Positions 5,468 to 62,521 of a stretch of 64,000 nucleotides of DNA are shown one piece after another. The translations under genes and the position numbers were made by a program. The stretch is taken from NCBI RefSeq assembly GCF_044324785.1, contig NZ_CP172127.1; one strand, written 5' to 3'. The stretch is from Escherichia coli. GTDB lineage: Bacteria > Pseudomonadota > Gammaproteobacteria > Enterobacterales > Enterobacteriaceae. The notes beneath the pieces were generated by a model. The model saw only the letters and a list, made by a program, of their open reading frames with translations, searched no databases and was not told the DNA's origin. Position 1 is the first letter of the stretch. Every line of letters begins with the position of its first letter.

Positions 5468-6420
5468 AGGCGTTTACCTATGAACGAGTGAACACCCCGG
5501 CCGAGGCGGCACTTAGCGCTCAGCGTGTACCCGGCGCAAAATTTATCGCTGGCGGGACCAATCTGCTGGACCTGATGAAGCTGGAAATTGAAACGCCAAC
5601 CCACCTTATCGATGTGAACGGGCTCGGGCTCGATAAGATTGAAGTGACCGACGCGGGTGGGCTGCGCATCGGCGCACTGGTACGGAACACCGACCTGGCG
5701 GCTCACGAGCGCGTGCGTCGTGATTATGCGGTACTCTCCCGCGCCTTGCTCGCGGGCGCGTCTGGTCAGTTACGTAATCAGGCAACCACCGCAGGTAATC
5801 TGCTCCAGCGCACGCGCTGCCCCTATTTTTACGACACCAATCAGCCCTGCAATAAGCGCCTGCCCGGGAGTGGCTGCGCGGCGCTTGAAGGCTTTAGCCG
5901 TCAGCACGCGGTGGTAGGCGTAAGCGAAGCCTGCATTGCCACCCATCCGAGCGATATGGCGGTCGCAATGCGGTTGCTGGATGCGGTGGTGGAAACCATC
6001 ACGCCGGAGGGAAAGACTCGCAGTATCACACTGGCTGATTTTTATCACCCACCGGGGAAAACGCCGCACATTGAAACCGCCCTGCTTCCCGGTGAGCTTA
6101 TCGTTGCGGTGACGTTACCTCCGCCGCTCGGCGGAAAACATATCTACCGTAAGGTGCGCGATCGCGCCTCCTACGCCTTTGCCCTGGTATCGGTCGCGGC
6201 GATTATTCAGCCTGACGGCAGCGGGCGCGTCGCGCTGGGCGGAGTAGCACATAAGCCCTGGCGCATTGAAGCTGCGGATGCTCAGCTATCCCTGGGGGCG
6301 CAGGCCGTATATGACGCGCTGTTCGCCAGCGCCCATCCCACCGCTGAAAACACCTTTAAACTCCTGTTGGCGAAGCGAACGCTTGCCTCCGTACTGGCTG
6401 AAGCGAGGGCACAGGCATGA
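5464..6420 (+). CDS. paoB: Aldehyde oxidoreductase FAD-binding subunit PaoB
   Basis: 318 aa; start overlaps the paoA stop by 4 bp (translational coupling); xanthine-dehydrogenase-family medium subunit by position and sequence recall. Confidence 0.9.
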
Positions 6421-8615
6421 AATTTGATAAACCCGCAGGGGAAAACCCGATCGATCAGCTGAAGGTTGTCGGTCGTCCCCATGACCGCATCGACGGACCG
6501 CTGAAAACTACCGGCACGGCACGCTACGCCTACGAATGGTTTGAAGAAGCTCCCAACGCCGCCTATGGCTATATCGTCGGTTCCGCCATTGCCAAAGGAC
6601 GCCTCACCGCCCTCGATACGGACGCCGCGCAAAAAGCGCCGGGCGTACTGGCTGTCATTACCGCCAGTAACGCCGGGGCACTCGGCAAAGGCGACAAAAA
6701 CACCGCCAGCCTGTTAGGCGGCCCCACTATTGAGCACTATCATCAGGCCATTGCGCTGGTAGTGGCCGAGACCTTCGAACAGGCGCGAGCGGCGGCCTCG
6801 CTGGTGCAGGCGCACTATCGCCGTAATAAAGGAGCTTACTCCCTGGCGGACGAGAAACAGGCCGTCAGTCAGCCGCCGGAAGACACGCCCGATAAAAATG
6901 TTGGTGACTTTGACGGGGCTTTCACCTCCGCTGCGGTGAAGATTGATGCTACCTACACGACCCCGGACCAGAGCCATATGGCGATGGAGCCGCATGCCTC
7001 GATGGCCGTCTGGGATGGAAATAAGCTTACCCTCTGGACCTCAAACCAGATGATTGACTGGTGCCGCACCGATCTGGCAAAAACGCTGAAAGTGCCTGTG
7101 GAGAATGTGCGTATTATCTCCCCGTATATCGGCGGAGGGTTTGGCGGCAAGCTGTTCCTGAGAAGCGATGCACTGCTGGCGGCCCTCGCCGCCCGAGCGG
7201 TGAAACGTCCGGTTAAAGTGATGCTCCCCCGTCCCACTATTCCCAATAACACCACGCACCGCCCCGCCACCCTTCAGCACTTGCGTATCGGTGCCGACCA
7301 GAGCGGGAAAATCACTGCTATCTCACATGAAAGCTGGTCCGGAAACCTGCCCGGTGGCACGCCGGAAACGGCGGTACAGCAAAGCGAATTTCTTTACGCA
7401 GGGGCGAATCGTCATACCGGCCTGCGGCTCGCCACGCTTGATTTGCCGGAAGGGAACGCCATGCGTGCGCCCGGCGAAGCCCCCGGTCTGATGGCGCTCG
7501 AAATCGCGATCGATGAACTGGCGGAAAAAGCGGGCATCGATCCCGTCGAGTTTCGCATCCTGAATGACACTCAGGTTGACCCCGCCGATCCGACGCGCCG
7601 CTTCTCTCGCCGTCAGCTTATCGAGTGCTTGCGCACCGGAGCGGATAAATTTGGCTGGAAGCAGCGCAACGCCACACCCGGACAGGTACGCGACGGGGAG
7701 TGGCTAGTCGGCCACGGTGTTGCGGCGGGCTTTCGCAATAATCTGCTGGAAAAATCGGGTGCGCGGGTTCACCTGGAGCAAAACGGCACCGTTACCGTGG
7801 AAACGGACATGACCGATATTGGCACTGGCAGCTACACCATTCTGGCCCAGACGGCAGCGGAAATGCTTGGCGTACCGCTGGAGCAGGTTGCGGTTCACCT
7901 CGGCGATTCCAGTTTCCCGGTTTCTGCGGGGTCTGGTGGACAATGGGGCGCGAATACCTCCACCTCCGGCGTTTACGCCGCCTGTGTGAAGCTTCGCGAA
8001 ATGATTGCCTCGGCAGTCGGGTTTGATCCTGAGCAGTCGCAGTTTGCCGACGGCAAGATTACCAACGGTACCCGAAGCGCCATGCTACATGAGGCCACCG
8101 CAGGCGGCAGACTGACAGCGGAAGAGAGCATTGAATTCGGAACACTGAGCAAGGAGTACCAGCAGTCGACCTTTGCCGGGCATTATGTGGAGGTCGGCGT
8201 GCATAGCGCGACGGGAGAAGTTCGGGTCCGGCGTATGCTCGCTGTGTGTGCTGCAGGACGCATCCTGAATCCGAAAACTGCACGCAGCCAGGTCATTGGC
8301 GCAATGACTATGGGCATGGGCGCGGCACTGATGGAGGAGCTGGCGGTAGATGACCGTTTGGGCTACTTCGTTAATCACGATATGGCGGGGTATGAGGTGC
8401 CGGTCCATGCGGATATCCCAAAACAGGAGGTGATTTTCCTGGATGATACCGACCCCATCTCCTCCCCGATGAAGGCCAAAGGTGTCGGTGAGCTGGGCCT
8501 GTGCGGCGTGAGCGCGGCTATCGCCAACGCGGTGTATAACGCCACCGGTATTCGGGTACGGGATTATCCCATCACTCTGGATAAGCTGCTCGATAAGCTG
8601 CCGGATGTGGTTTAA
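6417..8615 (+). CDS. paoC: Aldehyde oxidoreductase molybdenum-cofactor subunit PaoC
   Basis: 732 aa; overlaps the paoB stop by 4 bp; large-subunit xanthine dehydrogenase/aldehyde oxidase family by sequence recall and operon context. Confidence 0.9.
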
Positions 8616-8624
8616 GGAGGAACA

Positions 8625-15390: not shown

Positions 15391-15652
15391 TAGTAGAAAT
15401 ATTTAAACCAGTGTAGGTTCAGGGATACGCCACAGCAAGAAATAGTTTACTTATTCCTCATTTTGTCTACTTAAAATTGACATTGAGAAAAAAATACAAA
15501 CTTACCTACATTCAGGCAAAGTGCGACAAATAGACTCGGTCGGTTTAAAGAGAACGTGTAACATAGATGCAAATCGAATAGACATTGTTGCCAGCCGTTC
15601 CAAGGTTGTGGGGCGCTGCATGGCCTGAGACGTGATAAATACAGGGAACACA

Positions 15653-18600
15653 ATGAAATTCACTGAAGATACCCGAGTAAAAATCCCCGTCATCCTCCAC
15701 CTGATACGGCTGGGCTACCACTACCTGTCCCTTAAAGAACAACGCTGGGACAAAGAAACCAATATCTTCCCTGACCTCTTCACCGCTGCGATTGGCAGAA
15801 TAAATCCCGGACTTGTGCCAGACGACATCGGACGCCTGTTAAAAGACCTCACGCTGCTTCTCGACAACGATGATCTGGGCCGCGCCTTCTTCGAAAAACT
15901 CAGTGACCGTTCCGGTATCAAACTGATCGACTTTGATAACTTCAACAACAACAGTTTCCATGTCGTCACCGAACTGACCTGCGAAAACGGTGATGAAGAA
16001 TTCCGCCCGGACATCACGCTGCTGATCAACGGCATGCCGCTAATCTTTATCGAAGTGAAAAAACCCAACAATCGGGAAGGCATCGTCGCAGAACGCAACC
16101 GCATCAACGAACGCTTTAAAAACCCCAAATTCAAACGCTTCGCCAACATCACCCAGTTCATGATCTTCTCCAATAACATGGAGTATGACGACAGCGACCC
16201 GGAGCCGATTCAAGGGGCATTCTACGCCAGCAGCTCTTACAGCAACCCGGTATTCAACTACTTCCGCGAAGAAGAACTCTTCAACCTGACCAACTTACTG
16301 AAACCGCTGTCAGAAGAAACCGAAATCGCCGTCCTGAAAGACAACAACCTGGAAGTGATCCGCACCAACCCGGAATTTCAGACCAACAAAGATCACAACC
16401 GCCCGACAAACCGCCTCTGCACCGCGCTGTTGAGCCGGGATCGGCTGGCATTTATCCTGCGCTATGCGCTGGTGTATGTAGCCGAACCGGGCGGCATCCA
16501 AAAACACATCATGCGCTACCCGCAGCTCTTCGCCACCAAAGCGATTGAGCGCAAACTGAACGCTGGCGTGAAAAAAGGCATTATCTGGCACACCCAGGGC
16601 AGTGGGAAAACCGCATTGGCATACTACAACGTGCGCTTCCTGACAGATTACTTCCAGAATCAGCAGGTGATCCCGAAATTCTACTTTATTGTCGATCGTC
16701 TTGATCTGCTCCAGCAGGCGCAGCGTGAATTCACCGCCCGTGGCTTAATCGTTCACCTTATCGACTCCCGCGAAGCCTTCACCCGCGATATCAAAGCGAC
16801 GCAGGCGCTGCACAACCACCACGGCAAAGCGGAAATCACCGTCGTCAACATCCAGAAATTCCGCGATGACCCGGATGTCGTCACCACCAAAGACTACGAC
16901 ATCAACATCCAACGCGTGTACTTCCTCGATGAAGTCCACCGCAGCTACAACCCCAAAGGGAGCTTCCTGGCGAATTTAAGCCAGTCGGACACCAACGCCA
17001 TCAAAATTGGCCTGACCGGTACGCCTCTGCTGGGCACAGACTACAACTCCCGCGACCTCTTCGGCGACTACATCCACAAATACTACTACAACGCCTCCAT
17101 TGCCGACGGCTACACGCTGCGCCTGATCCGTGAAGAGATCGCCACCAACTACCGGATGATCCTGCAACAGGCGCTAAAAGACGTAGAAGTCAGAATGGGC
17201 GATGTGGATCGCAAAGACATCTACGCCCATCCCAGTTTCGTCAAACCGATGCTGAACTACATCGTCACCGACTTTGCCAAAAGCCGGGGCGCACTGAATG
17301 ATGACACCATCGGCGGCATGGTGATTTGCGACAGCTCAGAACAGGCCAAGCAGATGTTTGAGATATTCAACACTGACTACGCCGAATCGCCCACCGCTGC
17401 CGATGACGTCGCCGAAGAAATGCCGGTATTACAGGCCGCAGAGCCTGCCGCCGTTTACCAGATCCACGCCAAAGAAACGCGGAAAATCAAACGCGCCGCC
17501 CTGATCCTGCACGACGTCGGCAGCAAGCAGGAGCGCAAAGAATGGGTGGATCAATTCAAAGCGGGCGAGATTGACCTGCTGTTCGTCTACAACATGTTGC
17601 TCACGGGCTTTGACGCCAAACGGCTAAAAAAACTCTACCTCGGGCGGGTGATCAGAAAGCACAACCTGCTCCAGGCGCTGACCCGCGTCAACCGAACCTA
17701 CAACCACTTCCGCTACGGCTATGTGGTGGACTTCGCCGACATCCGCCAGGAATTTGACGCCACCAACAAAGCCTACTTCGAAGAGCTACAGGCTGAACTG
17801 GGCGATGAAATGGAGCATTACTCCCGCCTGTTCAAATCAGCGGATGAGATTCGCGAAGAAATCGAACATATCAAAGACGTTCTGTTTAGCTTCGATACCG
17901 AAAACGCGGAAATCTTCACTGACCAGATAAACCAGATCCATGACCGGGAAACCGCGCTGGTACTGAAAAACGCGCTGGCCGACGCCCGCAGCCTGTACAA
18001 CCTGATTCGCCTCCAGGGCAACACTGAGTTTCTCCAGGCGCTGGATTTCAACAAACTCAACATCCTTTACCGCGAAGCCAGCCGCCGCCTCGACTTACTC
18101 AACCTGAAGGCGGATCTGGAACAGGGTGTTGACCTCTCCGGCCTGCTGAACCGGGCGCTGGAAGAGGTGATCTTTGAATTCCACAAAGTGGGCGAAGAAG
18201 AGCTGGTACTGGCCGACGAGCTGAAAGAGACGCTGCGCCGCACCCGCGAAGCGCTGGCCGCCAACTTCGACCAGCAGGACCCGCAGTTCGTCAGCCTGAA
18301 AGACGAACTGGAGCGTCTGTTTAAGAAAAAGAAACTCAGCGAAGTCACCCAGCAAGAAATGGTTGCGAATATCGGCACACTCAATAAAATTCATGGCCGC
18401 ATCAAAGAGCTAAACCGCCAAAATAACCTGCTGCGCCAGAAATACCGTGGCGACGTGAAATACGCGCGTACCCACAAACGCCTGCGCGAGCGCGGCGGCC
18501 TGAGCGAGCCGGAGCGTAAAATCTTCGAAGCACTGCTTGGCGTTAAGCTGGATGCGGATGAAAAAGTGCTGAATAACAGCCAGATACTGAACAACGAAAG

Positions 18601-18751
18601 CTATTTTGAGCGGCAGATTGTGTCATGTGTACTCGATCACTTTGAACAACAGCAGCACATCACCCTGAGTGCGAAAGCGGCTGGCGACATCAACCGCCTG
18701 ATTGTGGCGGAATACCTGAACGAATTTAATACCGGAGCACGTACGTGGTAG
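15653..18751 (+). CDS. hsdR: Type I restriction enzyme, endonuclease/translocase subunit HsdR
   Basis: N-terminal PD-(D/E)xK nuclease motif (IFIEVKK), helicase motif I (HTQGSGKT) and motif II (FLDEVHRS); ATG at 15653 preceded by AGGGA, with an upstream in-frame GTG at 15632. Confidence 0.85.
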   Translation: MKFTEDTRVKIPVILHLIRLGYHYLSLKEQRWDKETNIFPDLFTAAIGRINPGLVPDDIGRLLKDLTLLLDNDDLGRAFFEKLSDRSGIKLIDFDNFNNNSFHVVTELTCENGDEEFRPDITLLINGMPLIFIEVKKPNNREGIVAERNRINERFKNPKFKRFANITQFMIFSNNMEYDDSDPEPIQGAFYASSSYSNPVFNYFREEELFNLTNLLKPLSEETEIAVLKDNNLEVIRTNPEFQTNKDHNRPTNRLCTALLSRDRLAFILRYALVYVAEPGGIQKHIMRYPQLFATKAIERKLNAGVKKGIIWHTQGSGKTALAYYNVRFLTDYFQNQQVIPKFYFIVDRLDLLQQAQREFTARGLIVHLIDSREAFTRDIKATQALHNHHGKAEITVVNIQKFRDDPDVVTTKDYDINIQRVYFLDEVHRSYNPKGSFLANLSQSDTNAIKIGLTGTPLLGTDYNSRDLFGDYIHKYYYNASIADGYTLRLIREEIATNYRMILQQALKDVEVRMGDVDRKDIYAHPSFVKPMLNYIVTDFAKSRGALNDDTIGGMVICDSSEQAKQMFEIFNTDYAESPTAADDVAEEMPVLQAAEPAAVYQIHAKETRKIKRAALILHDVGSKQERKEWVDQFKAGEIDLLFVYNMLLTGFDAKRLKKLYLGRVIRKHNLLQALTRVNRTYNHFRYGYVVDFADIRQEFDATNKAYFEELQAELGDEMEHYSRLFKSADEIREEIEHIKDVLFSFDTENAEIFTDQINQIHDRETALVLKNALADARSLYNLIRLQGNTEFLQALDFNKLNILYREASRRLDLLNLKADLEQGVDLSGLLNRALEEVIFEFHKVGEEELVLADELKETLRRTREALAANFDQQDPQFVSLKDELERLFKKKKLSEVTQQEMVANIGTLNKIHGRIKELNRQNNLLRQKYRGDVKYARTHKRLRERGGLSEPERKIFEALLGVKLDADEKVLNNSQILNNESYFERQIVSCVLDHFEQQQHITLSAKAAGDINRLIVAEYLNEFNTGARTW

Positions 18752-18909
18752 AACTGTAATTTAGAGATAAAACCAAAACCCTGATCGACAGCCTGAAAAG
18801 CATCTGTGCGAACTACGGCCTGGGCAACGACGGTAACGAATTCAAAATTATCACTCAGGCATTCCTGTACAAATTCCTGAACGACAAATTCGCCTTTGAA
18901 GCCAAAAAG

Positions 18910-20382
18910 GTGGATAAAAGCATCGCCAGCGCCGAAAAATGGGAAGTCGCGCTCAATCAGATGAGCGAAGAACAGCGGGATAAACTGCAACTGAAGATGA
19001 GCGCCGACACTGCGCGTCTGAAGCCGCATCACTTCATTCAGTATTTATACAACCGTCAAAATGAGGCCAATTTCGCCACCACCTTTGACGACACCCTGAT
19101 GGACATCGCCGCCACCAACAACGACGTCTTCGCGGTCAAAACTGACGGCGGCGCGAAAGTGGTGCTGTTTGAGCGCCTCAGCCAGTACATCGCCGACGAA
19201 TCAAGGCGCGACGACTTCTGCCGCGCCATTATCAACAAACTGGCCGATTTCAGCTTCGAGCGCATCTTCACGCAGAAATTCGACTTCTACGCCACTATCT
19301 TTGAATACCTGATCAAAGACTACAACAGCAACTCCGGCGGCAAATACGCGGAATACTATACGCCCCACGCCGTGGCGCGCATCATGGCGGAAATCCTGGT
19401 GCCGAAAGCACAACAGGGCGTAGTGCGCAACGTAAGCTGTTACGACCCGTCCGCCGGTTCCGGCACCTTACTGATGAACGTGGCGCACGCCATCGGGGAA
19501 GATCGTTGCAGCATCTTCGCGCAGGACATCTCGCAGAAATCCTCCAGCCTGCTGCGCCTGAACCTGATCCTCAACAATCTGGTGCATTCGATCCCCAACG
19601 TGATTCAGGGCAACACCATTCTGCACCCGTTCCACAAGGACGGCAGCGCGCTGAAACGCTTTGACTATATCGTCTCTAACCCGCCGTTTAAGATGGATTT
19701 CAGCGATTTCCGCGACGATTTGGATAGCAAGGAAAACCAGCAACGTTTCTTTGCCGGGATACCAAAAATCAAAGCCAAAGCCAGGGACAAAATGGAAATT
19801 TACCAGTTGTTCCTGCAACACATCATTTTCTCGCTGAAACCGGATGGTAAGGCGGCGGTCGTGGTGCCGACCGGGTTTATCACCGCGCAGTCGGGCATTG
19901 ATAAAGGGATTCGCGAACATCTGGTGAAAAACAAGATGCTGGCGGGTGTGGTTTCCATGCCGTCGAATATCTTCGCCACCACCGGCACTAACGTATCGAT
20001 CCTGTTTATTGACGCCAGCAACAAAGAGAAAGTGGTGCTGATCGACGCCTCGAATTTAGGTGAAAAGGTCAAAGACGGCAAAAACCAGAAAACGGTGCTG
20101 ACCGAAGAAGAAGAGCAGCGCATCTGCGAAGTGTTCAACAACAAGTGGAGCGAAGAGGATTTCTCGGTGGTGGTCAGCTATGACGAGATCGCCGGGAAAA
20201 ATTACTCGTTCAGCGCCGGGCAGTATTTCGATGTGAAAATTGAATACACCGATATGACGCCGGAACAGTTTGCCGCGAAGATGAACGGGTTTACGGAGAA
20301 TCTGGAGAGTTTGTTTAGCCAGTCGCGCGAGCTGGAGGTGGAGATTAAAAAGCAGATGGCGGGGCTGAATTTCCATGGTTAA
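18910..20382 (+). CDS. hsdM: Type I restriction-modification methyltransferase subunit HsdM (start uncertain)
   Basis: AdoMet motif DPSAGSGTLL, catalytic NPPF, and the conserved EYYTPHAVARIMAEIL segment. The annotated start is a GTG; about 150 bp of in-frame HsdM-like sequence lies upstream without a canonical start (see findings). Confidence 0.8.
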   Translation: MDKSIASAEKWEVALNQMSEEQRDKLQLKMSADTARLKPHHFIQYLYNRQNEANFATTFDDTLMDIAATNNDVFAVKTDGGAKVVLFERLSQYIADESRRDDFCRAIINKLADFSFERIFTQKFDFYATIFEYLIKDYNSNSGGKYAEYYTPHAVARIMAEILVPKAQQGVVRNVSCYDPSAGSGTLLMNVAHAIGEDRCSIFAQDISQKSSSLLRLNLILNNLVHSIPNVIQGNTILHPFHKDGSALKRFDYIVSNPPFKMDFSDFRDDLDSKENQQRFFAGIPKIKAKARDKMEIYQLFLQHIIFSLKPDGKAAVVVPTGFITAQSGIDKGIREHLVKNKMLAGVVSMPSNIFATTGTNVSILFIDASNKEKVVLIDASNLGEKVKDGKNQKTVLTEEEEQRICEVFNNKWSEEDFSVVVSYDEIAGKNYSFSAGQYFDVKIEYTDMTPEQFAAKMNGFTENLESLFSQSRELEVEIKKQMAGLNFHG

Positions 20383-21493
20383 AACTATTGGTGATGCTTG
20401 TAATATTAGTACAGGTAAACTTGATGCAAACCAGGCTGTAAAAGGTGGTGATTATCCGTTTTTTACGTGCGCAGAGTTCCCTGAACAAATCGATCATTAT
20501 GCATTTGACGGCGATGTGGTTCTTATTGCTGGCAATAATGCAAGAGGAAACTTTCACGTAAGCAGGTATCAAGGGAAATTTAATGCTTACCAGCGAACCT
20601 ATGTGCTTACAGCCAAACATGGTTATGATATTGATTATATTTACTATGCCTTAAGACTTGAATTAAAGCGATTGCGAGAAAAATCTCAAGGCTCGCAAAC
20701 AAAGTTTCTGACAATGCCGATTTTGACCAGTATATCGCTAGGAAACCTAGTCGAGACTGAACAATCGACAGTTTCAAGAGTATTAAAAATACTGGATAAA
20801 AAAATCGCTCTCAACAATCGTATCAACGCCGAGCTGGAAGCGATGGCGAAAACACTGTATGACTACTGGTTTGTACAGTTTGATTTCCCTGATGCCAACG
20901 GAAAACCGTATAAAACCTCCGGCGGGAAGATGGTGTACAACGCCACGCTGAAACGGGAAATTCCGGCGGGGTGGAATATTAAAAATCTTGGCGATATAGC
21001 GGAACTATATCAGCCTAAGACCATTTCAGGTAACGATTTTATTGATGATGGTGAATATCTTGTATATGGAGCCAACGGTATTGTAGGAAGATTCAATAAA
21101 TATAACCATGAAGAACCTGTCGTTACAATCACCTGCCGTGGAAATACGTGCGGCAATATAAACGTCACACGACCATATTCATGGATTACAGGGAATGCAA
21201 TGGTGGTTAAGCCAAAGTTTAACTATATTTCACCTTATTATATTTATAATTTATTGTCGATATCGGAAGTTGATAAAGTCATTACTGGCTCTGCTCAACC
21301 TCAAATTACGCGAGCAAACCTAGCTCCACTTAAGGTTGTTGAACCAGCAGAGGACATTACGCAAAAATACTCAAAGTCTGTTGATGCTTTTTTTAAAAAG
21401 CATATCTCAATATTAGATGAAAATGATAATTTATTAAAACTCCGCGACTGGCTCCTCCCCCTGCTTATGAACGGACAGGTCACGGTCAAATAA
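20375..21493 (+). CDS. hsdS: Type I restriction-modification specificity subunit HsdS (two target-recognition domains)
   Basis: 372 aa; overlaps the hsdM stop by 8 bp; two variable AT-rich domains separated by a central conserved spacer (LDKKIALNNRINAELEAMAKTLYDYWFVQFDFPD) and a C-terminal conserved helix (LLKLRDWLLPLLMNGQVTV). Confidence 0.8.
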   Translation: MVKTIGDACNISTGKLDANQAVKGGDYPFFTCAEFPEQIDHYAFDGDVVLIAGNNARGNFHVSRYQGKFNAYQRTYVLTAKHGYDIDYIYYALRLELKRLREKSQGSQTKFLTMPILTSISLGNLVETEQSTVSRVLKILDKKIALNNRINAELEAMAKTLYDYWFVQFDFPDANGKPYKTSGGKMVYNATLKREIPAGWNIKNLGDIAELYQPKTISGNDFIDDGEYLVYGANGIVGRFNKYNHEEPVVTITCRGNTCGNINVTRPYSWITGNAMVVKPKFNYISPYYIYNLLSISEVDKVITGSAQPQITRANLAPLKVVEPAEDITQKYSKSVDAFFKKHISILDENDNLLKLRDWLLPLLMNGQVTVK

Positions 21494-21835: not shown

Positions 21836-22306
21836 ATGGCTACAATCCTCACCCCTGACTGCGATTTACTCGATCTGTTATCCGTTCCCTTCAATGCCAC
21901 CACGGATTTTACTGTCCTTGCCGATTACTGCACCCGCTTCGCCGAAACCCTGATAGAAACCGACGATCCCGCGCTGCGGCTGGCGCTGAGCGGACGGCTT
22001 CACGCGGCTCTTGCGCTACTGCAACCCACACTGCATGACCCCATCCCGCCGCATCTTACCGAAAGCCTGACCGTTAATACCCTTCCCGCCACACCAGAGC
22101 ACTTTATTTCCGAACCCGATTCCTTGTGCGAATACTGCCTCGCACTGCTCCAGCTTCTGCTGGAACGCCCGGCGGAGCCAAAAATGGAGCAAACCCTGAC
22201 CGGGCTGCTGTGTGAGCTGGTCTGGAATTTCACGGAAGGACTCAAATCCCCGCGCTGGCTGCGTACCGCCGACGGCGTAAAATTTATCAGTGAGGTGGCC
22301 GCATGA
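21836..22306 (+). CDS. Hypothetical protein (157 aa from ATG 21836), unknown function
   Basis: ATG at 21836 preceded by CAGGAG; Leu/Ala-rich, no recognisable motif; its stop overlaps the start of the downstream Ner-like fragment (ATGATG). Confidence 0.5.
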
Positions 22307-22655
22307 TGCAACAGGACTGGCATTCCACCGACATTATCGCCACGCTGAAAAAGCGGGGAACGTCTCTGGCGGCGCAGAGAAAAACTCATTGCGGACGCGC
22401 TGTAAATATCGTCAGAAATCATCTGGCCTTCAAGGTACTTTGATAGCAAAGGCAAGCAGGCTGGTTCAGTCCCGTGTTTCTCTTCTTGCATTTTCAGAAA
22501 TGGGAGGCTGGGAGTCTATCGAAATGGTTCGTCGATATGCTCACCTCGCACCTAATCACCTTACCGAACACGCACGGCAAATAGACTCGATCCTGAACCC
22601 ATCGGTCCCAAATTTGTCCCAGTCAAAAAATAAGGAAGGTACTAATGATGTGTAA
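22303..22655 (+). pseudogene. Fusion remnant: frameshifted Ner/Nlp-like HTH gene fragment joined to the 3' end (~190 bp) of a tyrosine-integrase gene
   Basis: The first 24 codons ([24 protein letters not shown]) match the Ner/Nlp family N-terminus as I recall it, then the frame breaks. From about 22460 the DNA and translation ([36 protein letters not shown]) parallel the C-terminus of the intact int at 62240-62431, and the stop sits at the same offset from the tRNA-derived repeat. Confidence 0.55.
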
Positions 22656-22715
22656 CTTATTGATTTAAATGGTGCCGATAATAGGAGTCGAACCTACGAC
22701 CTTCGCATTACGAAT
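22652..22715. repeat. Prophage attachment-site repeat (attL): 64-bp direct repeat containing the 3'-terminal 46 nt of tRNA-Thr (thrW)
   Basis: Identical 64-mer to 62428-62491 (GTAACTTATTGATTTAAATGGTGCCGATAATAGGAGTCGAACCTACGACCTTCGCATTACGAAT); the sequences diverge on both sides. Confidence 0.85.
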
Positions 22716-23044
22716 CTGTAGAACCAATCATAACTATCTGTTTTAGCAAGCATTAACCGCATTCACCAAGCAATAGTTGATGGCACAAACAGAAAGTTGA
22801 TGCATGATGTTGTCATGTGTATGTCACAAATACGGCACAACGATCTTCAAACATGTAGCCACCCAGCATAGAAGAGCACAAATCCTTGCAATCCAGTGCA
22901 AAGCTTTGTGTACCTTAGTTTTGTCTCATAGGTAATTCTGCTTTAACTGCGATGCAGGAATCTGTCACCAGACGCACGTCTCGTTGTTTTATGGTTTTCC
23001 GTTCATGATTAATATGTTAGCTTGTCAAAGTTTGTGTTTAAGAT

Positions 23045-23716
23045 ATGGTGATTGATGCAATGTTAAGCGTTCAGATGACTCCACAAGCAAAAGTTAGCTT
23101 CGAGGAGCAATGTTTTTTTCATGCTTCATGTCTTGTTGTTGCCCCAATAAATGTTGGAGCATTCTCCTACTTTGGCGCTAATTGTATGCTCGGCGGCTTT
23201 ACGATGGGTAGATTTTGTTCAGTTGCTCCAGGAGTAAAAATTGGCCTTGGCGAGCATGAAACTGGGTATTTTTCTACGCATCCTTTTTTCTTTGGCTCAA
23301 AAAATGGTTTTAAAATCCCTGATGGTATAGGAATGCAACGCGACCTCTCTCAACAGAAGCATGGTATACCAAGAATTGGTCATGACGTATGGATAGGTGC
23401 AAATGCGGTTATCAGGCGAGGTATAACTATTGGTACTGGCGCTGTTATTGCTGCTGGCGCTATTGTCACCAAAAATGTCGATCCATATTCAATCGTAGGT
23501 GGCGTTTCTGCAAAACACCTAGGGTACAGATTTGAGGAATCAATCATCAAAGAGTTACTGGATAGCCAATGGTGGGAATATGATTTAAGCTCATTTATTG
23601 GGATTGATACAAGGACACCGACGACTTTTTTAGAGCAGTTTAATGCTGTAAAAGATAAAAAGAAGGCATCTTATAAGAGATTTACAATTCTTCCATCCGG
23701 TGAAATTGTTGAATAG
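23045..23716 (+). CDS. Hexapeptide-repeat xenobiotic acetyltransferase (XAT; Vat/CatB-like)
   Basis: Left-handed beta-helix repeats plus the C-terminal segment [53 protein letters not shown]...[10 protein letters not shown], which closely parallels streptogramin-A / chloramphenicol-B acetyltransferases as I recall them; AT-rich; lies between attL and the tailspike gene. Confidence 0.7.
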
Positions 23717-23735
23717 CGCATCCCTGCGCTATATT

Positions 23736-26105
23736 TTAAATAAACATAAGAATAAACATCAGAAGTTCTTCGTATCTGATACCATACTGATAGCCAGCAG
23801 GTTTAATAATAACCTGCCTTCCTGTGTAATATTCCTCGTCGTACCACTCTCCTGTTTCATTGTTTTTAACACTCCTAATCAATACCTCTGGAGCATAAAT
23901 ATCATCCCATTCATCATAACACCAGAACGCATAGTTATTAGGGTCAAGACCGTATTTTCTGAGAATATTACCTACAGTTTGTGCACCAACGCCGAAATGA
24001 ATCCGAGCGCCATCACTCTTGATCTTTACTGCATCTTTAAATTTAAACCTCCAGATATTTTCCTTTATTTCAAGCGCAGCAAGACGCTCTGATTCTGTTG
24101 TTTTCTCGTCAGCCTCAATACGCAATTTCAGCTCTTCATTCGACGTGTTGATACTGCCAGTACCAGCGTATACCTGTGACCATCGAAATGCTGATGTTCC
24201 GTTTGAGTTAACATTATCAACAGTTGGTTTTATAAGGCCAGAAAAATGAGTTTCAGGTGTATTAATATATGTATATGCACCTGCTGTACTACGAGTCCTT
24301 AACTCAAAGCTGTCTATATCAACACCAGTCCTACGAATTATAAGGAAGTTATTTCCTGCGGAACCAGTATCGGTTTGAGTGCTAACAGACAATCCGTTTC
24401 GTGTATCAATACGTATATTCTTCCCGTTCTCCAGCGAAGCAGAATTATGTAGATACAGCGAGTTGTCAGTGTAGAGATTGTGTTTACCTACATTGCTAAA
24501 TGTATAAGTATTGCTTGTGTTATCACTGTTCCTATGGAATTGCTGAAGAGTGTAGGCAGAAGATGCTCCGTATCCATCACAATGGAAATTTCTGCACAGC
24601 TGCAAATCGAATAACAATACGGTGTCAGCATTAATGCTCACATTATTAAAGCATGTTGCAAAGTTGGCACCATACTGTGAATTGGAATCGCCAATCTGTG
24701 CGCACACATCAAGCAAACCAAAAGTTACATTGGTAAAGTTATTTGCATCACCGGCGTCAAGAACAATCCCTTTCTTAGTCCCTGAATACCCTCTGGCAGT
24801 GCCGATCTCAACTCCCTGGAATGAACACACGCGAGCACGACTAAGCTTAAGACCAACCCATTCCAGACCATGATCGTAACCTTTTGCTGCGCGGTGAATA
24901 AACATACCATTCATGATGAGAAGGAATCTGTTATCAAGCCGTACTGGTTCAAGTTGGGCATTAATACCAACATTTGTGCATATACATTCACCATAAGCAT
25001 AACGATTCGTTTCAAATATACGATCATCAGCGTCGTAAATGCCTCGTAATGCCTTGGCGGCATCAATATTAAGCAATGTAAAATATGTCTTCTGCTTAAT
25101 TTCAAAAAAATTTGCAACATTATGCGTTGTGATATCACTCACACGCATTGATAAAATCCCCTCTTCTGGAGCGGTGCGAATGAATCCATCAAGGAACTGT
25201 TCATTATAACTTTTGGCTATCTGATAACATCCAACAGCATCAATGCGTTCGATTGTGAACTGCCAACTATCACCACAGTTAAAAGACCATCTCCAGCCGT
25301 ATTTCTGAGCGAATTCATCATATTCAACATTTGCAGGTTCAGAACAGAAAGATAAAAATCTAAATGTTGGTTTTGGCCTTAGATGGTTAATCCCGGAACC
25401 TCTTGGGGTATATATGGCATTATCTCCATTCCCACCTTTTGTTTTAACTGTAAGGTGACTTAAACCAAATTCAATATCATATTTAGTTGGTGCGGCGAAA
25501 ACAAAGCCGTCTTTTGGTGATGTGGTATTGTCAAACACAATAACCGTTTCACCCTGCCCATCACCGCACATATTTACTGGTGGTATATTAACGGGGCCAG
25601 TCAAACTATATGTTCCAGTTGGCACATATAGTTTTCCACCCTCTCCAATAGCATTTGCCGCTGCAATAAATGCCGCCGTATCATCGTTAACACCGTCACC
25701 TTTCGCCCCATAATGCTGTGGCGTAATTAACAGCATACGGTCAGAAAAAATCTCTGTCCTAAGTTGATCAGGATCGTATTTTAATACATTTGGAAAATAA
25801 AACTGCTGAGTGCCATATGCATCATATACAGCCATAGAATGGCCTTGCACGGTAACGAATTTGGCAATCTGTCCGTTATATACCGGATAACCAGCAGCGT
25901 TAATAATGATTGGTTGAGAAACAGGAACGTGAGAACCGTCTTCGTTCTCTACATAAACCGGAATCTGGTTTTCAGGATTTACCGGGTCAGTGTCAATTTT
26001 ACCGATATAAATTTTTCCATTAGCATTTGCTTTAAACGAGCGAGCTAAAGTGAATAACTGACTTGGTTGTGAAACAACAACATTGGCATTTATTGAATCT
26101 GTCAT
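23736..26105 (-). CDS. Phage tailspike protein (P22 gp9-like head-binding domain with a divergent receptor-binding body)
   Basis: N-terminal ~115 aa ([18 protein letters not shown]...[12 protein letters not shown]...[13 protein letters not shown]...VLKYDPDQ) match the P22 tailspike head-binding domain; the remainder is unrelated and AT-rich at the 3' end. Confidence 0.85.
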
Positions 26106-47392: not shown

Positions 47393-47468
47393 TGGTGCTG
47401 GTTAACGGACTTGAACCGCTAGCCATTCGCTTACAAGGCGACCGCTCTACCATTGGAGCTAAACCAGC
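47393..47468 (-). tRNA. Prophage-encoded tRNA (76 nt; anticodon read as UGU, Thr)
   Basis: Hand fold of GCTGGTT...AACCAGCACCA: 7-bp acceptor stem, D-arm GCTC/GAGC, T-arm AGCGG-TTCAAGT-CCGTT, CCA encoded; the anticodon stem has one mismatch. Confidence 0.55.
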
Positions 47469-47473
47469 ATGTT

Positions 47474-47548
47474 TGGCGGGACAGCGTGGACTCGAACCAC
47501 GATAAGAAGGTTAACAGCCTTCCGTAATGACCTTTATACGACTGACCC
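47474..47548 (-). tRNA. Prophage-encoded tRNA-like gene (75 nt; anticodon read as GUU, Asn), possibly degenerate
   Basis: T-arm CGTGG-TTCGAGT-CCACG and anticodon arm GAAGG-CTGTTAA-CCTTC are clean; the acceptor and D stems each have one mismatch; CCA encoded. Confidence 0.45.
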
Positions 47549-61046: not shown

Positions 61047-61394
61047 GTGGAAGAAGAAATCTTCACTCGTGAAGAGGCAGCGTCGTATCTGAAGGTAGAC
61101 AAAGGCACTATCACGCAGTGGATACGAAGTGGACGACTTCAGGCCGCAAAGATAAATCCAGATAAACCTAAAAGCCCATATCGCATTTGCAAGTCAGACT
61201 GCATTGCGGCGCTTAAGTCTGTGAGACACAATAGCGCGGTGAATGCGGTTGATGTGCAGGAGGTTAAAGCATGTCAATCAAACTACGCGGTGGCACGTGG
61301 CACTGTGATTTCGTCGCGCCAGATGGATCAAGAGTTAGACGCTCTCTTGAAACATCGGACAAAAGGCAAGCGCAAGAACTTCACGATCGTCTAA
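61047..61394 (+). CDS. xis: Excisionase (Xis-like HTH)
   Basis: 115 aa; N-terminal REEAASYLKVDKGTITQWIRSGRL HTH; immediately upstream of and overlapping int. Confidence 0.65.
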   Translation: MEEEIFTREEAASYLKVDKGTITQWIRSGRLQAAKINPDKPKSPYRICKSDCIAALKSVRHNSAVNAVDVQEVKACQSNYAVARGTVISSRQMDQELDALLKHRTKGKRKNFTIV

Positions 61395-62431
61395 AAGCAG
61401 AAGCGTGGAGAGTAAAAAATCTCGGGGAATCACCGAAAAAGCTATTCAAGGAAGCCTGCATACGGTGGCTGCGTGAGAAATCGGATAAGAAGTCCATTGA
61501 TGATGACAAGAGCATTATATCGTTCTGGATGTTGCACTTCAGAGAAACCATTCTCTCAGACATAACAACAGAAAAAATAATGGAGGCGGTAGACGGGATG
61601 GAAAACCGCCGCCATCGCCTGAACTGGGAAATGAGCCGGGACAGGTGTTTGCGGCTTGGCAAGCCAGTGCCGGAGTATAAACCAAAGCTGGCAAGCAAAG
61701 GAACGAAGACGCGGCATCTGGCAATACTTCGCGCTATTCTCAATATGGCTGTTGAATGGGGATGGCTTGACAGGGCGCCCAAAATATCAACACCACGCGT
61801 TAAGAATGGACGAATCAGATGGCTTACAGAGGAGGAATCGAAGCGCCTGTTTGCAGAAATTGCTCCTCATTTCTTCCCTGTGGTCATGTTTGCAATCACG
61901 ACAGGCCTTCGCCGTTCCAACGTTACAGACCTTGAGTGGTCACAGGTCGATCTGGATAAGAAAATGGCATGGATGCACCCTGATGAAACAAAAGCTGGCA
62001 ATGCGATCGGAGTTCCTCTTAACGAAACCGCATGCCAGATATTAAGAAAACAGCAGGGTCTCCATAAGAGATGGGTGTTTGTCCACACCAAACCTGCCTA
62101 CCGAAGCGACGGAACAAAAACAGCAGCGGTAAGGAAGATGAGAACCGACAGCAACAAGGCATGGAAGGGAGCGTTAAAGCGGGCAGGCATTAGCAACTTC
62201 CGCTTCCATGACCTGAGGCATACCTGGGCAAGCTGGCTGGTTCAGTCCGGTGTCTCTCTTCTTGCACTTAAAGAGATGGGAGGATGGGAAACTCTCGAAA
62301 TGGTTCAAAGATACGCCCACCTTTCAGCCGGGCATCTCACCGAGCACGCGAGCAAAATCGATGCGATTATAAGTCGCAATGGCACAAATACGGCACAAGA
62401 GGAGAACGTGGTTTACTTAAATGCGAGGTAA
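61271..62431 (+). CDS. int: Tyrosine integrase (P22-like)
   Basis: 386 aa; catalytic-domain residues (...RFHDLRHTWASWLVQSGVSLLALKEMGGWETLEMVQRYAHL) and N-terminus like P22 Int; its stop lies inside the att repeat next to thrW. Confidence 0.9.
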   Translation: MSIKLRGGTWHCDFVAPDGSRVRRSLETSDKRQAQELHDRLKAEAWRVKNLGESPKKLFKEACIRWLREKSDKKSIDDDKSIISFWMLHFRETILSDITTEKIMEAVDGMENRRHRLNWEMSRDRCLRLGKPVPEYKPKLASKGTKTRHLAILRAILNMAVEWGWLDRAPKISTPRVKNGRIRWLTEEESKRLFAEIAPHFFPVVMFAITTGLRRSNVTDLEWSQVDLDKKMAWMHPDETKAGNAIGVPLNETACQILRKQQGLHKRWVFVHTKPAYRSDGTKTAAVRKMRTDSNKAWKGALKRAGISNFRFHDLRHTWASWLVQSGVSLLALKEMGGWETLEMVQRYAHLSAGHLTEHASKIDAIISRNGTNTAQEENVVYLNAR

Positions 62432-62491
62432 CTTATTGATTTAAATGGTGCCGATAATAGGAGTCGAACCTACGACCTTCGCATTACGAAT
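62428..62491. repeat. Prophage attachment-site repeat (attR): 64 bp overlapping the thrW 3' end
   Basis: Identical to 22652-22715. Confidence 0.85.
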
Positions 62492-62521
62492 GCGCTGCTC
62501 TACCAACTGAGCTATATCGGC
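62446..62521 (-). tRNA. thrW: tRNA-Thr (anticodon CGU)
   Basis: Reverse complement reads GCCGATATAGCTCAGTTGGTAGAGCAGCGCATTCGTAATGCGAAGGTCGTAGGTTCGACTCCTATTATCGGCACCA; canonical cloverleaf; sits beside proA. Confidence 0.9.

Follow-up and report, generated by a model that had tools for sequence, protein, structure and literature searches.

A prophage-borne XAT-like acetyltransferase as a probable O-acetylation determinant of the Escherichia coli K107 capsule

Introduction

In several temperate phages, the slot between the tailspike gene and attP, on the side opposite the integrase, is occupied by genes that modify the receptor of the very phage that carries them, namely oac in Sf6 and gtrABC in P22 and SfX. 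The products of Sf6 oac and of gtrABC are membrane proteins and act on the O-antigen outside the cytoplasm. As to capsules, the phage CUS-3 carries a capsule-specific tailspike. CUS-3 also encodes NeuO, and only the lysogens can modify their group-2 capsule (PMC3046976).

The genetic basis of capsule acetylation in E. coli has been addressed by the 2026 kTYPr study, according to which genes for O-acetylation type differences may sit outside the capsule locus (PMC13171606). The serological difference between K13 and K23 is O-acetylation (PMC13171606). In the case of K18 and K22 the loci are identical, K18 is the acetylated form and the acetyltransferase lies outside the locus (kTYPr paper, PMC13171606). 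[quoted passage not shown] K107 is a newly defined type with a positive association with invasiveness (PMC13171606).

We describe here an XAT-like hexapeptide O-acetyltransferase gene located in a stretch of 64,000 nucleotides of E. coli DNA (assembly GCF_044324785.1, contig NZ_CP172127.1), the whole of which is referred to below as the window. A literature search found no paper on this prophage acetyltransferase gene. It carries a generic annotation in RefSeq. Among prophage-borne polysaccharide O-acetyltransferases of lysogenic conversion, it would differ from the type example, NeuO, in its XAT-like branch, in the newly defined capsule, K107, that it would serve and in its possible switch.

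Results

The acetyltransferase gene at the attachment-site end of a P22-like prophage

An exact direct pair of 64-nt att repeats, with a spacing of 39,776 bases, delimits a 39.8-kb P22-like prophage integrated in thrW. Positions 22700-22929 of the window share 92-93% identity with the thrW-type attP regions annotated in HK542, mEp213 and other phages, and the att region is homologous to those of SfX and HK542-type phages. The features of the locus are as follows.

22652..22715, left copy of the 64-nt att repeat, a duplicated 3' part of tRNA-Thr thrW and the left prophage boundary (exact direct repeat)
22868..23044, + strand, non-coding stretch upstream of the acetyltransferase gene, with which it moves; presumed promoter region (similarity boundary in other prophages)
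23045..23716, + strand, XAT-like hexapeptide O-acetyltransferase gene (ORF of 223 aa; 218 aa, equal to WP_252148847.1, from the probable start at 23060)
23113..23119, + strand, T7 homopolymer at codons 23-25 of the acetyltransferase (alignment of seven alleles)
23713..23732, terminator-like hairpin between the convergent stop codons (8-bp stem with four G-C pairs, then a T-rich tail)
23736..26105, - strand, tailspike of 789 aa, P22-type, presumed capsule depolymerase (Pfam and PDB matches)
61271..62431, + strand, prophage integrase, abutting thrW at the other prophage end (386-aa ORF, tyrosine-recombinase matches)
62428..62491, right copy of the att repeat, inside thrW (overlapping tRNA-Thr(CGT) at 62446-62521)

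The 223-aa ORF on which an earlier note on this DNA had drawn attention is present, and the residues quoted in that note are found in its translation. We propose a correction of the start to M6 at 23060, which is likelier: RefSeq uses M6 in near-identical copies, which are begun at the sixth codon and labelled 'CatB-related O-acetyltransferase', and the N-termini of the homologues align there. The resulting 218-aa product of the window is an exact match to WP_252148847.1; one source labels the acetyltransferase 'chloramphenicol acetyltransferase'. Counted inwards from the prophage end that lies away from the integrase, the gene is the first, and the left att repeat is 330 bp from it, in agreement with the earlier view that it sits beside the attachment site in a slot typical of lysogenic-conversion cargo. 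This is the same attP-proximal slot as that of Sf6 oac and of gtrABC in P22 and SfX. Whether this prophage end is called attL or attR depends on convention only. The convergence with the tailspike, also claimed in the earlier note, is borne out by the position of the latter on the opposite strand, the two stop codons being 20 bp apart and the terminator-like hairpin common to both genes. The acetyltransferase gene and the tailspike have GC contents of 0.41 and 0.40, lower than those of the prophage (0.47) and the window (0.49). A consensus promoter scan yielded one weak sigma-70-like match at 23022-23049, and shuffled sequence gave more. Independent expression of the acetyltransferase in the lysogen is presumed. 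Neither the acetyltransferase nor the tailspike matched the defence models of PADLOC.

In LT599830, the record of such a phage from isolate NRZ14408 that was assembled separately in its excised form, the elements run int - attP - acetyltransferase - tailspike, and this isolate appears to release the phage. Among deposited phage genomes, none with the acetyltransferase gene was found, the DNA search matching the att region only, and a protein search of the phage collection returned only distant Vat-like genes of Gram-positive phages.

The closest described arrangement is that of NeuO, an acetyl-CoA-dependent left-handed beta-helix enzyme encoded by a P22-like prophage outside the capsule cluster (PMC3046976), and the present acetyltransferase gene likewise belongs to a temperate phage and not to the capsule locus, and lies beside the gene of a receptor-binding protein. 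The likeness to CUS-3 extends to the tailspike of the window, which has an endosialidase-type C-terminal chaperone domain, and to a repeat tract near the 5' end of the coding sequence that could switch expression. The differences are nonetheless clear. The present enzyme belongs to another branch of the family, NeuO (3jqy_B) matching only residues 113-157 with an E-value of 9.9e-5; the target of NeuO is polysialic acid, whereas the predicted target here is a ribose-Kdo type K107 capsule; and NeuO has a heptanucleotide VNTR, whereas the putative switch here is a T7 tract, no NeuO-like phase-variable tandem repeat being present in or before the acetyltransferase gene. Membership of the NeuO/OatWY sequence family was considered and rejected, as there is no full-length homology to NeuO.

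Fold and catalytic residues

Pfam places hexapeptide repeats at residues 110-143 of the acetyltransferase, and sequence searches matched the CatB-like structure 6pu9 (E 4e-26), VatA (4e-24) and the NCBIfam models of Vat (1e-28) and CatB (1.5e-27). The canonical XAT architecture consists of a beta-helix, a central insert and three C-terminal helices (PMC7885111). The AlphaFold model of the acetyltransferase, built on 65 homologues (pLDDT 94.9), displays this XAT-class architecture (CDD cd03349 LbH_XAT): the strands of the beta-helix are broken by a loop at about 66-108, which contains a helix at 80-83, and are followed by three C-terminal helices at 165-174, 181-184 and 192-201. In Foldseek, the top ranks were taken by CatB, Vat and PaXAT, with TM-scores of only 0.50-0.56. 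The fold model and the sequence matches together support the earlier description of the protein as a soluble left-handed beta-helix acetyltransferase of the XAT type.

Five residues (H71, D114, V115, W116 and R162) are invariant in the 65 homologues, and Y42, W176 and W177 are conserved in at least 90% of them. The earlier note had suggested looking for the catalytic His of XAT enzymes in an alignment; it is present as the invariant H71, at the alignment position of the catalytic His in CatB and VatA. The counterparts in VatD are Y37 for Y42, H82 for H71 and W121 for W116. The acetyltransferase thus holds the XAT catalytic set, with a His in a projecting loop, a Trp opposite and an oxyanion Tyr. 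The roles assigned to these residues are those of a general-base His, a Trp opposite it that is contributed by the neighbouring subunit, and an oxyanion-stabilising Tyr (PMC3046976, PMC7885111). Because the fold is XAT-type and Y42, H71 and W116 correspond to VatD residues, the protein is, as judged from alignment and model, very probably an active acetyl-CoA-dependent O-acetyltransferase.

Comparison with the Vat and CatB resistance enzymes

The protein resembles CatB, PaXAT, VatA and VatD in its architecture, in its catalytic Tyr, His and Trp and in a C-terminal WW motif. It differs from CatB and Vat in its context, which is that of capsules and phages and not of resistance elements. The scores against the curated families are low: the Vat model NF000311 gave 100.3 bits against a cut-off of 300, with profile positions 59-184 of 201 matched, and the CatB model NF000490 gave 96.3 bits against a cut-off of 350, with positions 58-184 of 210 matched. 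The similarity to XAT enzymes detected by HMMER is confined to residues 52-182 of the acetyltransferase, and the identity to CatB, PaXAT, VatA and VatD is 29-41% across approximately 135-190 aligned positions. The kinship to Vat and CatB put forward in the earlier note consequently holds for the XAT fold and the catalytic residues, but not for family membership, for which the scores reach about one third of the cut-offs. The top NCBIfam match was TIGR03308, a phosphonate-metabolism hexapeptide transferase, at 120.1 bits; membership of this family was rejected, the score being under the cut-off of 201.65 and no phn genes lying nearby.

When the acetyltransferase clade is aligned by MAFFT to VatD, VatA and a Vat of phage origin, neither the 16-residue Vat segment S40-P55 nor the N14 region has a counterpart in the acetyltransferase; the insert loop exceeds that of Vat by six residues, and a conserved stretch of about 25 aa extends the C-terminus. 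The Vat pocket residues are named in bioRxiv 10.1101/2025.01.31.635826, and the list used here (N14, Y37, L93, L108, P109; S40-P55) is partial, so that the comparison, in which L93 of VatD stands opposite F, P109 stands opposite S and only Y37 and L108 are identical, is indicative only. The earlier note had also proposed to look for the substrate-binding residues, and, as far as the partial list of Vat pocket residues indicates, this part of the kinship did not hold, the N14 region and S40-P55 being absent and L93 and P109 replaced. At the sequence level, the catalytic core is common with Vat and CatB and the acceptor side is built otherwise.

Relatives in capsule loci

The nearest full-length relatives outside the E. 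coli cluster show 44-66% identity, and when the GTDB representatives were scanned, at one genome per species, the identity was at most 47% among the matches listed. Seven close full-length homologues were traced to their contigs for genomic context. Six of them (47-58% identity) are found within ABC-transporter capsule loci with homologues of kpsM, kpsT, kpsE, kpsD, kpsC and kpsS, where they directly adjoin a protein of 1,141-1,210 aa that is a homologue of the K107-type E. coli polymerase (22-70% identity). The seventh (62%) occupies one end of a myovirus prophage, where tail-fibre and tail-fibre-assembly genes adjoin it, and none of the seven lies in an O-antigen cluster. The phosphatase/ribofuranosyltransferase part of the large polymerase neighbour matches Bcs3 of H. 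influenzae type b. In one of these loci, L003, the polymerase is 70% identical to that of E. coli and the acetyltransferase homologue is situated between the polymerase and kpsS. In another, L009, the homologue adjoins a 741-aa pectate-lyase/S74 protein, which aligns with residues 127-784 of the window's tailspike at 27% identity (E 6e-50).

The in-locus LbH_XAT acetyltransferases, that is, the four E. coli candidates listed in the Introduction and those of loci L003-L013, share with the present enzyme the cd03349 domain and a partner of the same polymerase family, the likeness being one of domain. They differ from it in lying within the capsule locus, whereas the acetyltransferase described here is prophage-borne and would serve a locus that has none of its own. 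In contrast to the oac and gtr products, it is a soluble enzyme and is kin to capsule-locus acetyltransferases. A 'CatB-related' ORF has been described for ST131 KL112, in the capsule region and not in a prophage.

Link to the K107 capsule locus

Across 5,426 complete E. coli genomes, the K107-type polymerase gene is present in 21, always at 99% identity or more, and the acetyltransferase gene in nine, all nine of which are among the 21. Its presence is thus restricted to one capsule type, every carrier having the K107-type polymerase. ST131 strain 2822 is a K107 strain that naturally lacks the acetyltransferase gene. By the hypergeometric distribution, such an overlap would arise by chance with a probability of 3e-23; counting no more than four independent acquisitions raises this to about 2e-10. 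In the lysogens, the capsule locus has the order kpsF-E-D-U-C-S, a 329-aa gene, a 1,169-aa gene, kpsT and kpsM, and its 14,253 bp contain no acetyltransferase gene. This locus matches kTYPr K107 by gene lengths, domain positions and locus size, the reference comprising K107_9 of 329 aa and K107_10 of 1,169 aa, whose HAD domain spans 450-661, in a locus of 14,255 bp.

The polymerase neighbour matched Bcs3, the ribosyl-ribitol-phosphate polymerase of Hib, and the enzyme that separates K18 from K22 is extra-locus; for this reason, we considered whether the gene could be the missing K18 acetyltransferase. This idea was rejected, since the K18_K22 and K100 loci encode a CDP-ribitol synthase of 485 aa and a TagF-like polymerase of 1,107 aa. 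The lysogens have instead only the 1,169-aa and 329-aa genes, which fits K107.

The tailspike and the mobile cassette

The tailspike comprises, according to Pfam, a P22 Head_binding domain at 4-114, a Pect-lyase beta-helix at 131-200 and, at 655-719, the Peptidase_S74 domain that constitutes the endosialidase-type C-terminal chaperone. The acetyltransferase and tailspike form a cassette that is found at the attP-proximal prophage end on P22-like backbones, at thrW in the window, at torT in GF4, A10 and 2018-10-1CC, in the bioA-ybhB region in AH21A060 and at dacD in LSC52; in TUM9803 it is next to a further integrase. The occurrence of the cassette on prophages at five different places points to independent acquisitions. 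Where the prophage lies at another site, sequence resembling the window starts only at about 22868-22871, approximately 177 bp upstream of the acetyltransferase gene. The lysogens span at least two kps sequence variants and at least four integration sites. In strain 2018-10-1CC, the tailspike beside the acetyltransferase is disrupted by IS1.

A depolymerase domain that is 97% identical also occurs, without the acetyltransferase, in a second and unrelated prophage near yfgI, and three genomes with this yfgI-region prophage lack the K107 polymerase. Br_112_kylling, EC17CM13 and AR_0085 are among the carriers of this tailspike paralogue. The K107 specificity of the tailspike is for this reason presumed, as is its depolymerase role; most probably, the tailspike binds and cleaves the same K107 capsule as that to which the acetyltransferase is linked.

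The T7/T6 tract

The alignment of seven alleles revealed a T7 tract in five and a T6 tract in the other two (GF4 and A10). T6 frameshifts the long ORF and brings into frame the ATG at 23110, which is preceded by a Shine-Dalgarno sequence, GAGGAG at 23102-23107, to give a 201-aa form. RefSeq annotates this 201-aa product in both GF4 and A10. The 201-aa form is found on 15 contigs and the long forms on hundreds; WP_000953884.1, WP_252148847.1 and their cluster-mates are together encoded on hundreds of contigs. From the sequence of the alleles, the T7/T6 polymorphism may switch the expression or the isoform of the enzyme, the alternative being simple decay.

Discussion

We propose that the prophage acetyltransferase is probably a lysogenic-conversion O-acetyltransferase of the host's K107 group-2 capsule, which is predicted to be of the ribose-Kdo type. 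In the proposed mechanism, the lysogen would express from the prophage a cytoplasmic, trimeric, acetyl-CoA-dependent O-acetyltransferase, and hydroxyls of the capsule would be acetylated in the cytoplasm, prior to export by the Kps machinery. H71, in the loop projecting from the helix, would act as the general base on the acceptor hydroxyl, Y42 would stabilise the oxyanion, and W116 of the neighbouring subunit would pack on the acetyl-CoA thioester, this chemistry being modelled on other XAT/LbH enzymes. We infer the acceptor, the acetylation site, the timing of the reaction and the effects on phage infection and immunity. As the K107 locus encodes no acetyltransferase, the prophage would give rise to an O-acetylated serovariant of K107. 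Because the gene travels with a tailspike that probably cleaves the same capsule, the modification is likely to alter the susceptibility to the carrying and related phages, as well as the antigenicity.

The earlier note had left the choice between an antibiotic and a cell-surface sugar as the substrate; of these, the sugar is favoured by the context of the homologues and by the co-occurrence with one capsule locus. That the enzyme should be an antibiotic-modifying XAT, acting on chloramphenicol as a type B enzyme, on streptogramin A or on another xenobiotic, and hence a phage-delivered resistance gene, would agree with the best structural and curated-family matches, which are CatB, Vat and PaXAT, the nearest solved structures being all antibiotic acetyltransferases, with the retention of the catalytic Tyr, His and Trp, and with the database names 'CatB-related' and 'chloramphenicol acetyltransferase'. 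We nevertheless consider this highly improbable in view of the scores of 100 against 300 bits for Vat and 96 against 350 for CatB, with a similarity that covers residues 52-182 only, the TM-scores of just 0.50-0.56, the missing S40-P55 segment and N14 region, the longer insert loop and the C-terminal extension of about 25 aa. Moreover, the closest relatives come from capsule loci and not from integrons or resistance islands, and streptogramin A is hardly relevant to E. coli. If a surface sugar is accepted as the substrate, the enzyme could instead acetylate another host glycan (LPS O-antigen, core, ECA or colanic acid), the link to K107 reflecting phage host range only. The slot next to attP is classically that of O-antigen modification genes in P22-like and Shigella phages, and the same depolymerase domain is present in three genomes without the K107 polymerase. 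Part of the co-occurrence could reflect the host range of the phage and not the substrate of the enzyme. We regard acetylation of another glycan as unlikely, as six of the seven homologues stand beside K107-type polymerases in capsule loci and none in an O-antigen cluster, as a soluble cytoplasmic enzyme suits a group-2 capsule assembled in the cytoplasm better than a periplasmic modification of the O-antigen, and as the lysogens comprise at least two kps variants and at least four integration sites. The LPS envisaged as a target in the earlier note is accordingly less well placed, the evidence favouring the group-2 capsule over the LPS O-antigen.

It may also be asked whether the gene has any conversion role, or is inert or decaying cargo, or an unrelated acetyltransferase of small metabolites. 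The long ORF is frameshifted in two of the seven alleles, the consensus scan recognised no promoter, and the tailspike is broken by IS1 in 2018-10-1CC, all of which would be compatible with decay. The frameshifted alleles, however, regain an in-frame start with a Shine-Dalgarno sequence, the catalytic residues are all intact, and the gene is retained with the tailspike on several phage backbones and is present on hundreds of E. coli contigs; we hold these readings to be improbable. The explanation that we retain is the acetylation of the K107 capsule by the lysogen.

A broader and more speculative hypothesis, which we put forward tentatively and hold to be doubtful as it stands, is that K107 exists in two chemical forms, set by P22-like phages that carry the cassette of depolymerase-tailspike and acetyltransferase, with exchange of genes with capsule loci, as in L009, and with toggling by the T7 tract between the long form and an off or short form. 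Were this true, E. coli would have, besides K1/CUS-3, a second and independent example of capsule form variation under phage control, and 'CatB-related' proteins across bacteria would be largely polysaccharide-modifying and not resistance determinants.

Capsule types that differ by O-acetylation alone are at present indistinguishable from the E. coli genome sequence. The prophage acetyltransferase is a concrete candidate for an extra-locus determinant of this kind, acting on K107. Caution is also warranted in annotation, since 'CatB-related' or XAT-like labels on mobile elements do not amount to antibiotic resistance. If this is confirmed, NeuO of CUS-3 would be joined by a second known example of a prophage that determines how an E. 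coli capsule is acetylated, and the finding would bear on serotyping, on the design of glycoconjugate vaccines and on the choice of therapeutic phages or depolymerases.

Integration site and mobility of the prophage

Three features of the window describe the surroundings and content of the P22-like prophage at thrW:

15632-21493 (+), type I restriction-modification operon in the island remnant adjoining the prophage
22290-22655 (+), C-terminal piece of another tyrosine integrase, immediately beyond the left att copy and outside the prophage
47393-47548 (-), tRNA genes Thr(TGT) and Asn(GTT), within the prophage

The integrase fragment looks like the remnant of an earlier element at thrW, in which case elements would have inserted there on two or more occasions. 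Part of it (22451-22591) matches the 3'-terminal part of the integrase gene that the prophage itself carries (62227-62367) at 77% DNA identity. The restriction-modification operon encodes, in order, an HsdR-like protein of 1,039 aa, an HsdM-like protein of 490 aa and a 372-aa product that is probably the specificity subunit; the HsdR and HsdM matches are under curated cut-offs. In one assembly of strain NRZ14408, the P22-like phage bearing the cassette of acetyltransferase and tailspike genes is a separate record of 41.3 kb in vegetative gene order (NZ_LT599830.1), in which the Thr(TGT)/Asn(GTT) tRNA pair is also annotated. The acetyltransferase copy is absent from a later assembly of the same strain (NZ_CP158426.1), and these two records together suggest that the phage of NRZ14408 is readily excised or lost. 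In strain 2018-10-1CC (comparison locus L102, 5869-7531), an IS1 cuts the tailspike adjoining the acetyltransferase gene down to an 801-nt remnant, the acetyltransferase gene being intact despite the broken tailspike. The remaining tailspike portion is found roughly 1 Mb from there, a separation indicating that this prophage was rearranged via IS1.

Relatives and variation of the cassette genes

Relatives of the window's tailspike were observed in two other settings:

L009 (metagenome contig SRR23095621_134577), 3896-6121, 741-aa pectate-lyase and S74-chaperone protein within a kps-type capsule locus
L020 (TUM9803) and L021 (EC17CM13), 6034-8616 in both, 860-aa 'glycosyl hydrolase family 28-related' protein in a second prophage near yfgI-pdeF

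The 741-aa protein is a phage-type depolymerase homologous to the tailspike, without its head-binding domain, and its gene is flanked by kpsF and an acetyltransferase homologue. The 860-aa protein shares 97% DNA identity with the tailspike over the catalytic and C-terminal part; its gene has no adjoining acetyltransferase, and its prophage is found both in genomes carrying the K107 capsule locus and in genomes without it. A relative of the acetyltransferase itself, a 'CatB-related O-acetyltransferase' with 34% identity to the window protein, is encoded on the E. coli plasmid NZ_AP027513.1 (97486-98085), where it falls within the plasmid locus (89240..113546) that serves as the kTYPr reference for type K160.

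Upstream of the acetyltransferase gene, a conserved stretch contains the short palindrome AGACG-CA-CGTCT (22970-22981), which could be an operator or could have arisen by chance. Codons 23-25 of the gene hold a T7 homopolymer (23113-23119), which is one T shorter (T6) in the E. coli strains GF4 and A10 (L104 and L105 compared). In the T6 allele an alternative start, ATG at 23110, comes in frame, with GAGGAG at 23102-23107, giving a 201-aa product. The difference between T7 and T6 may constitute a slipped-strand switch in the acetyltransferase gene.
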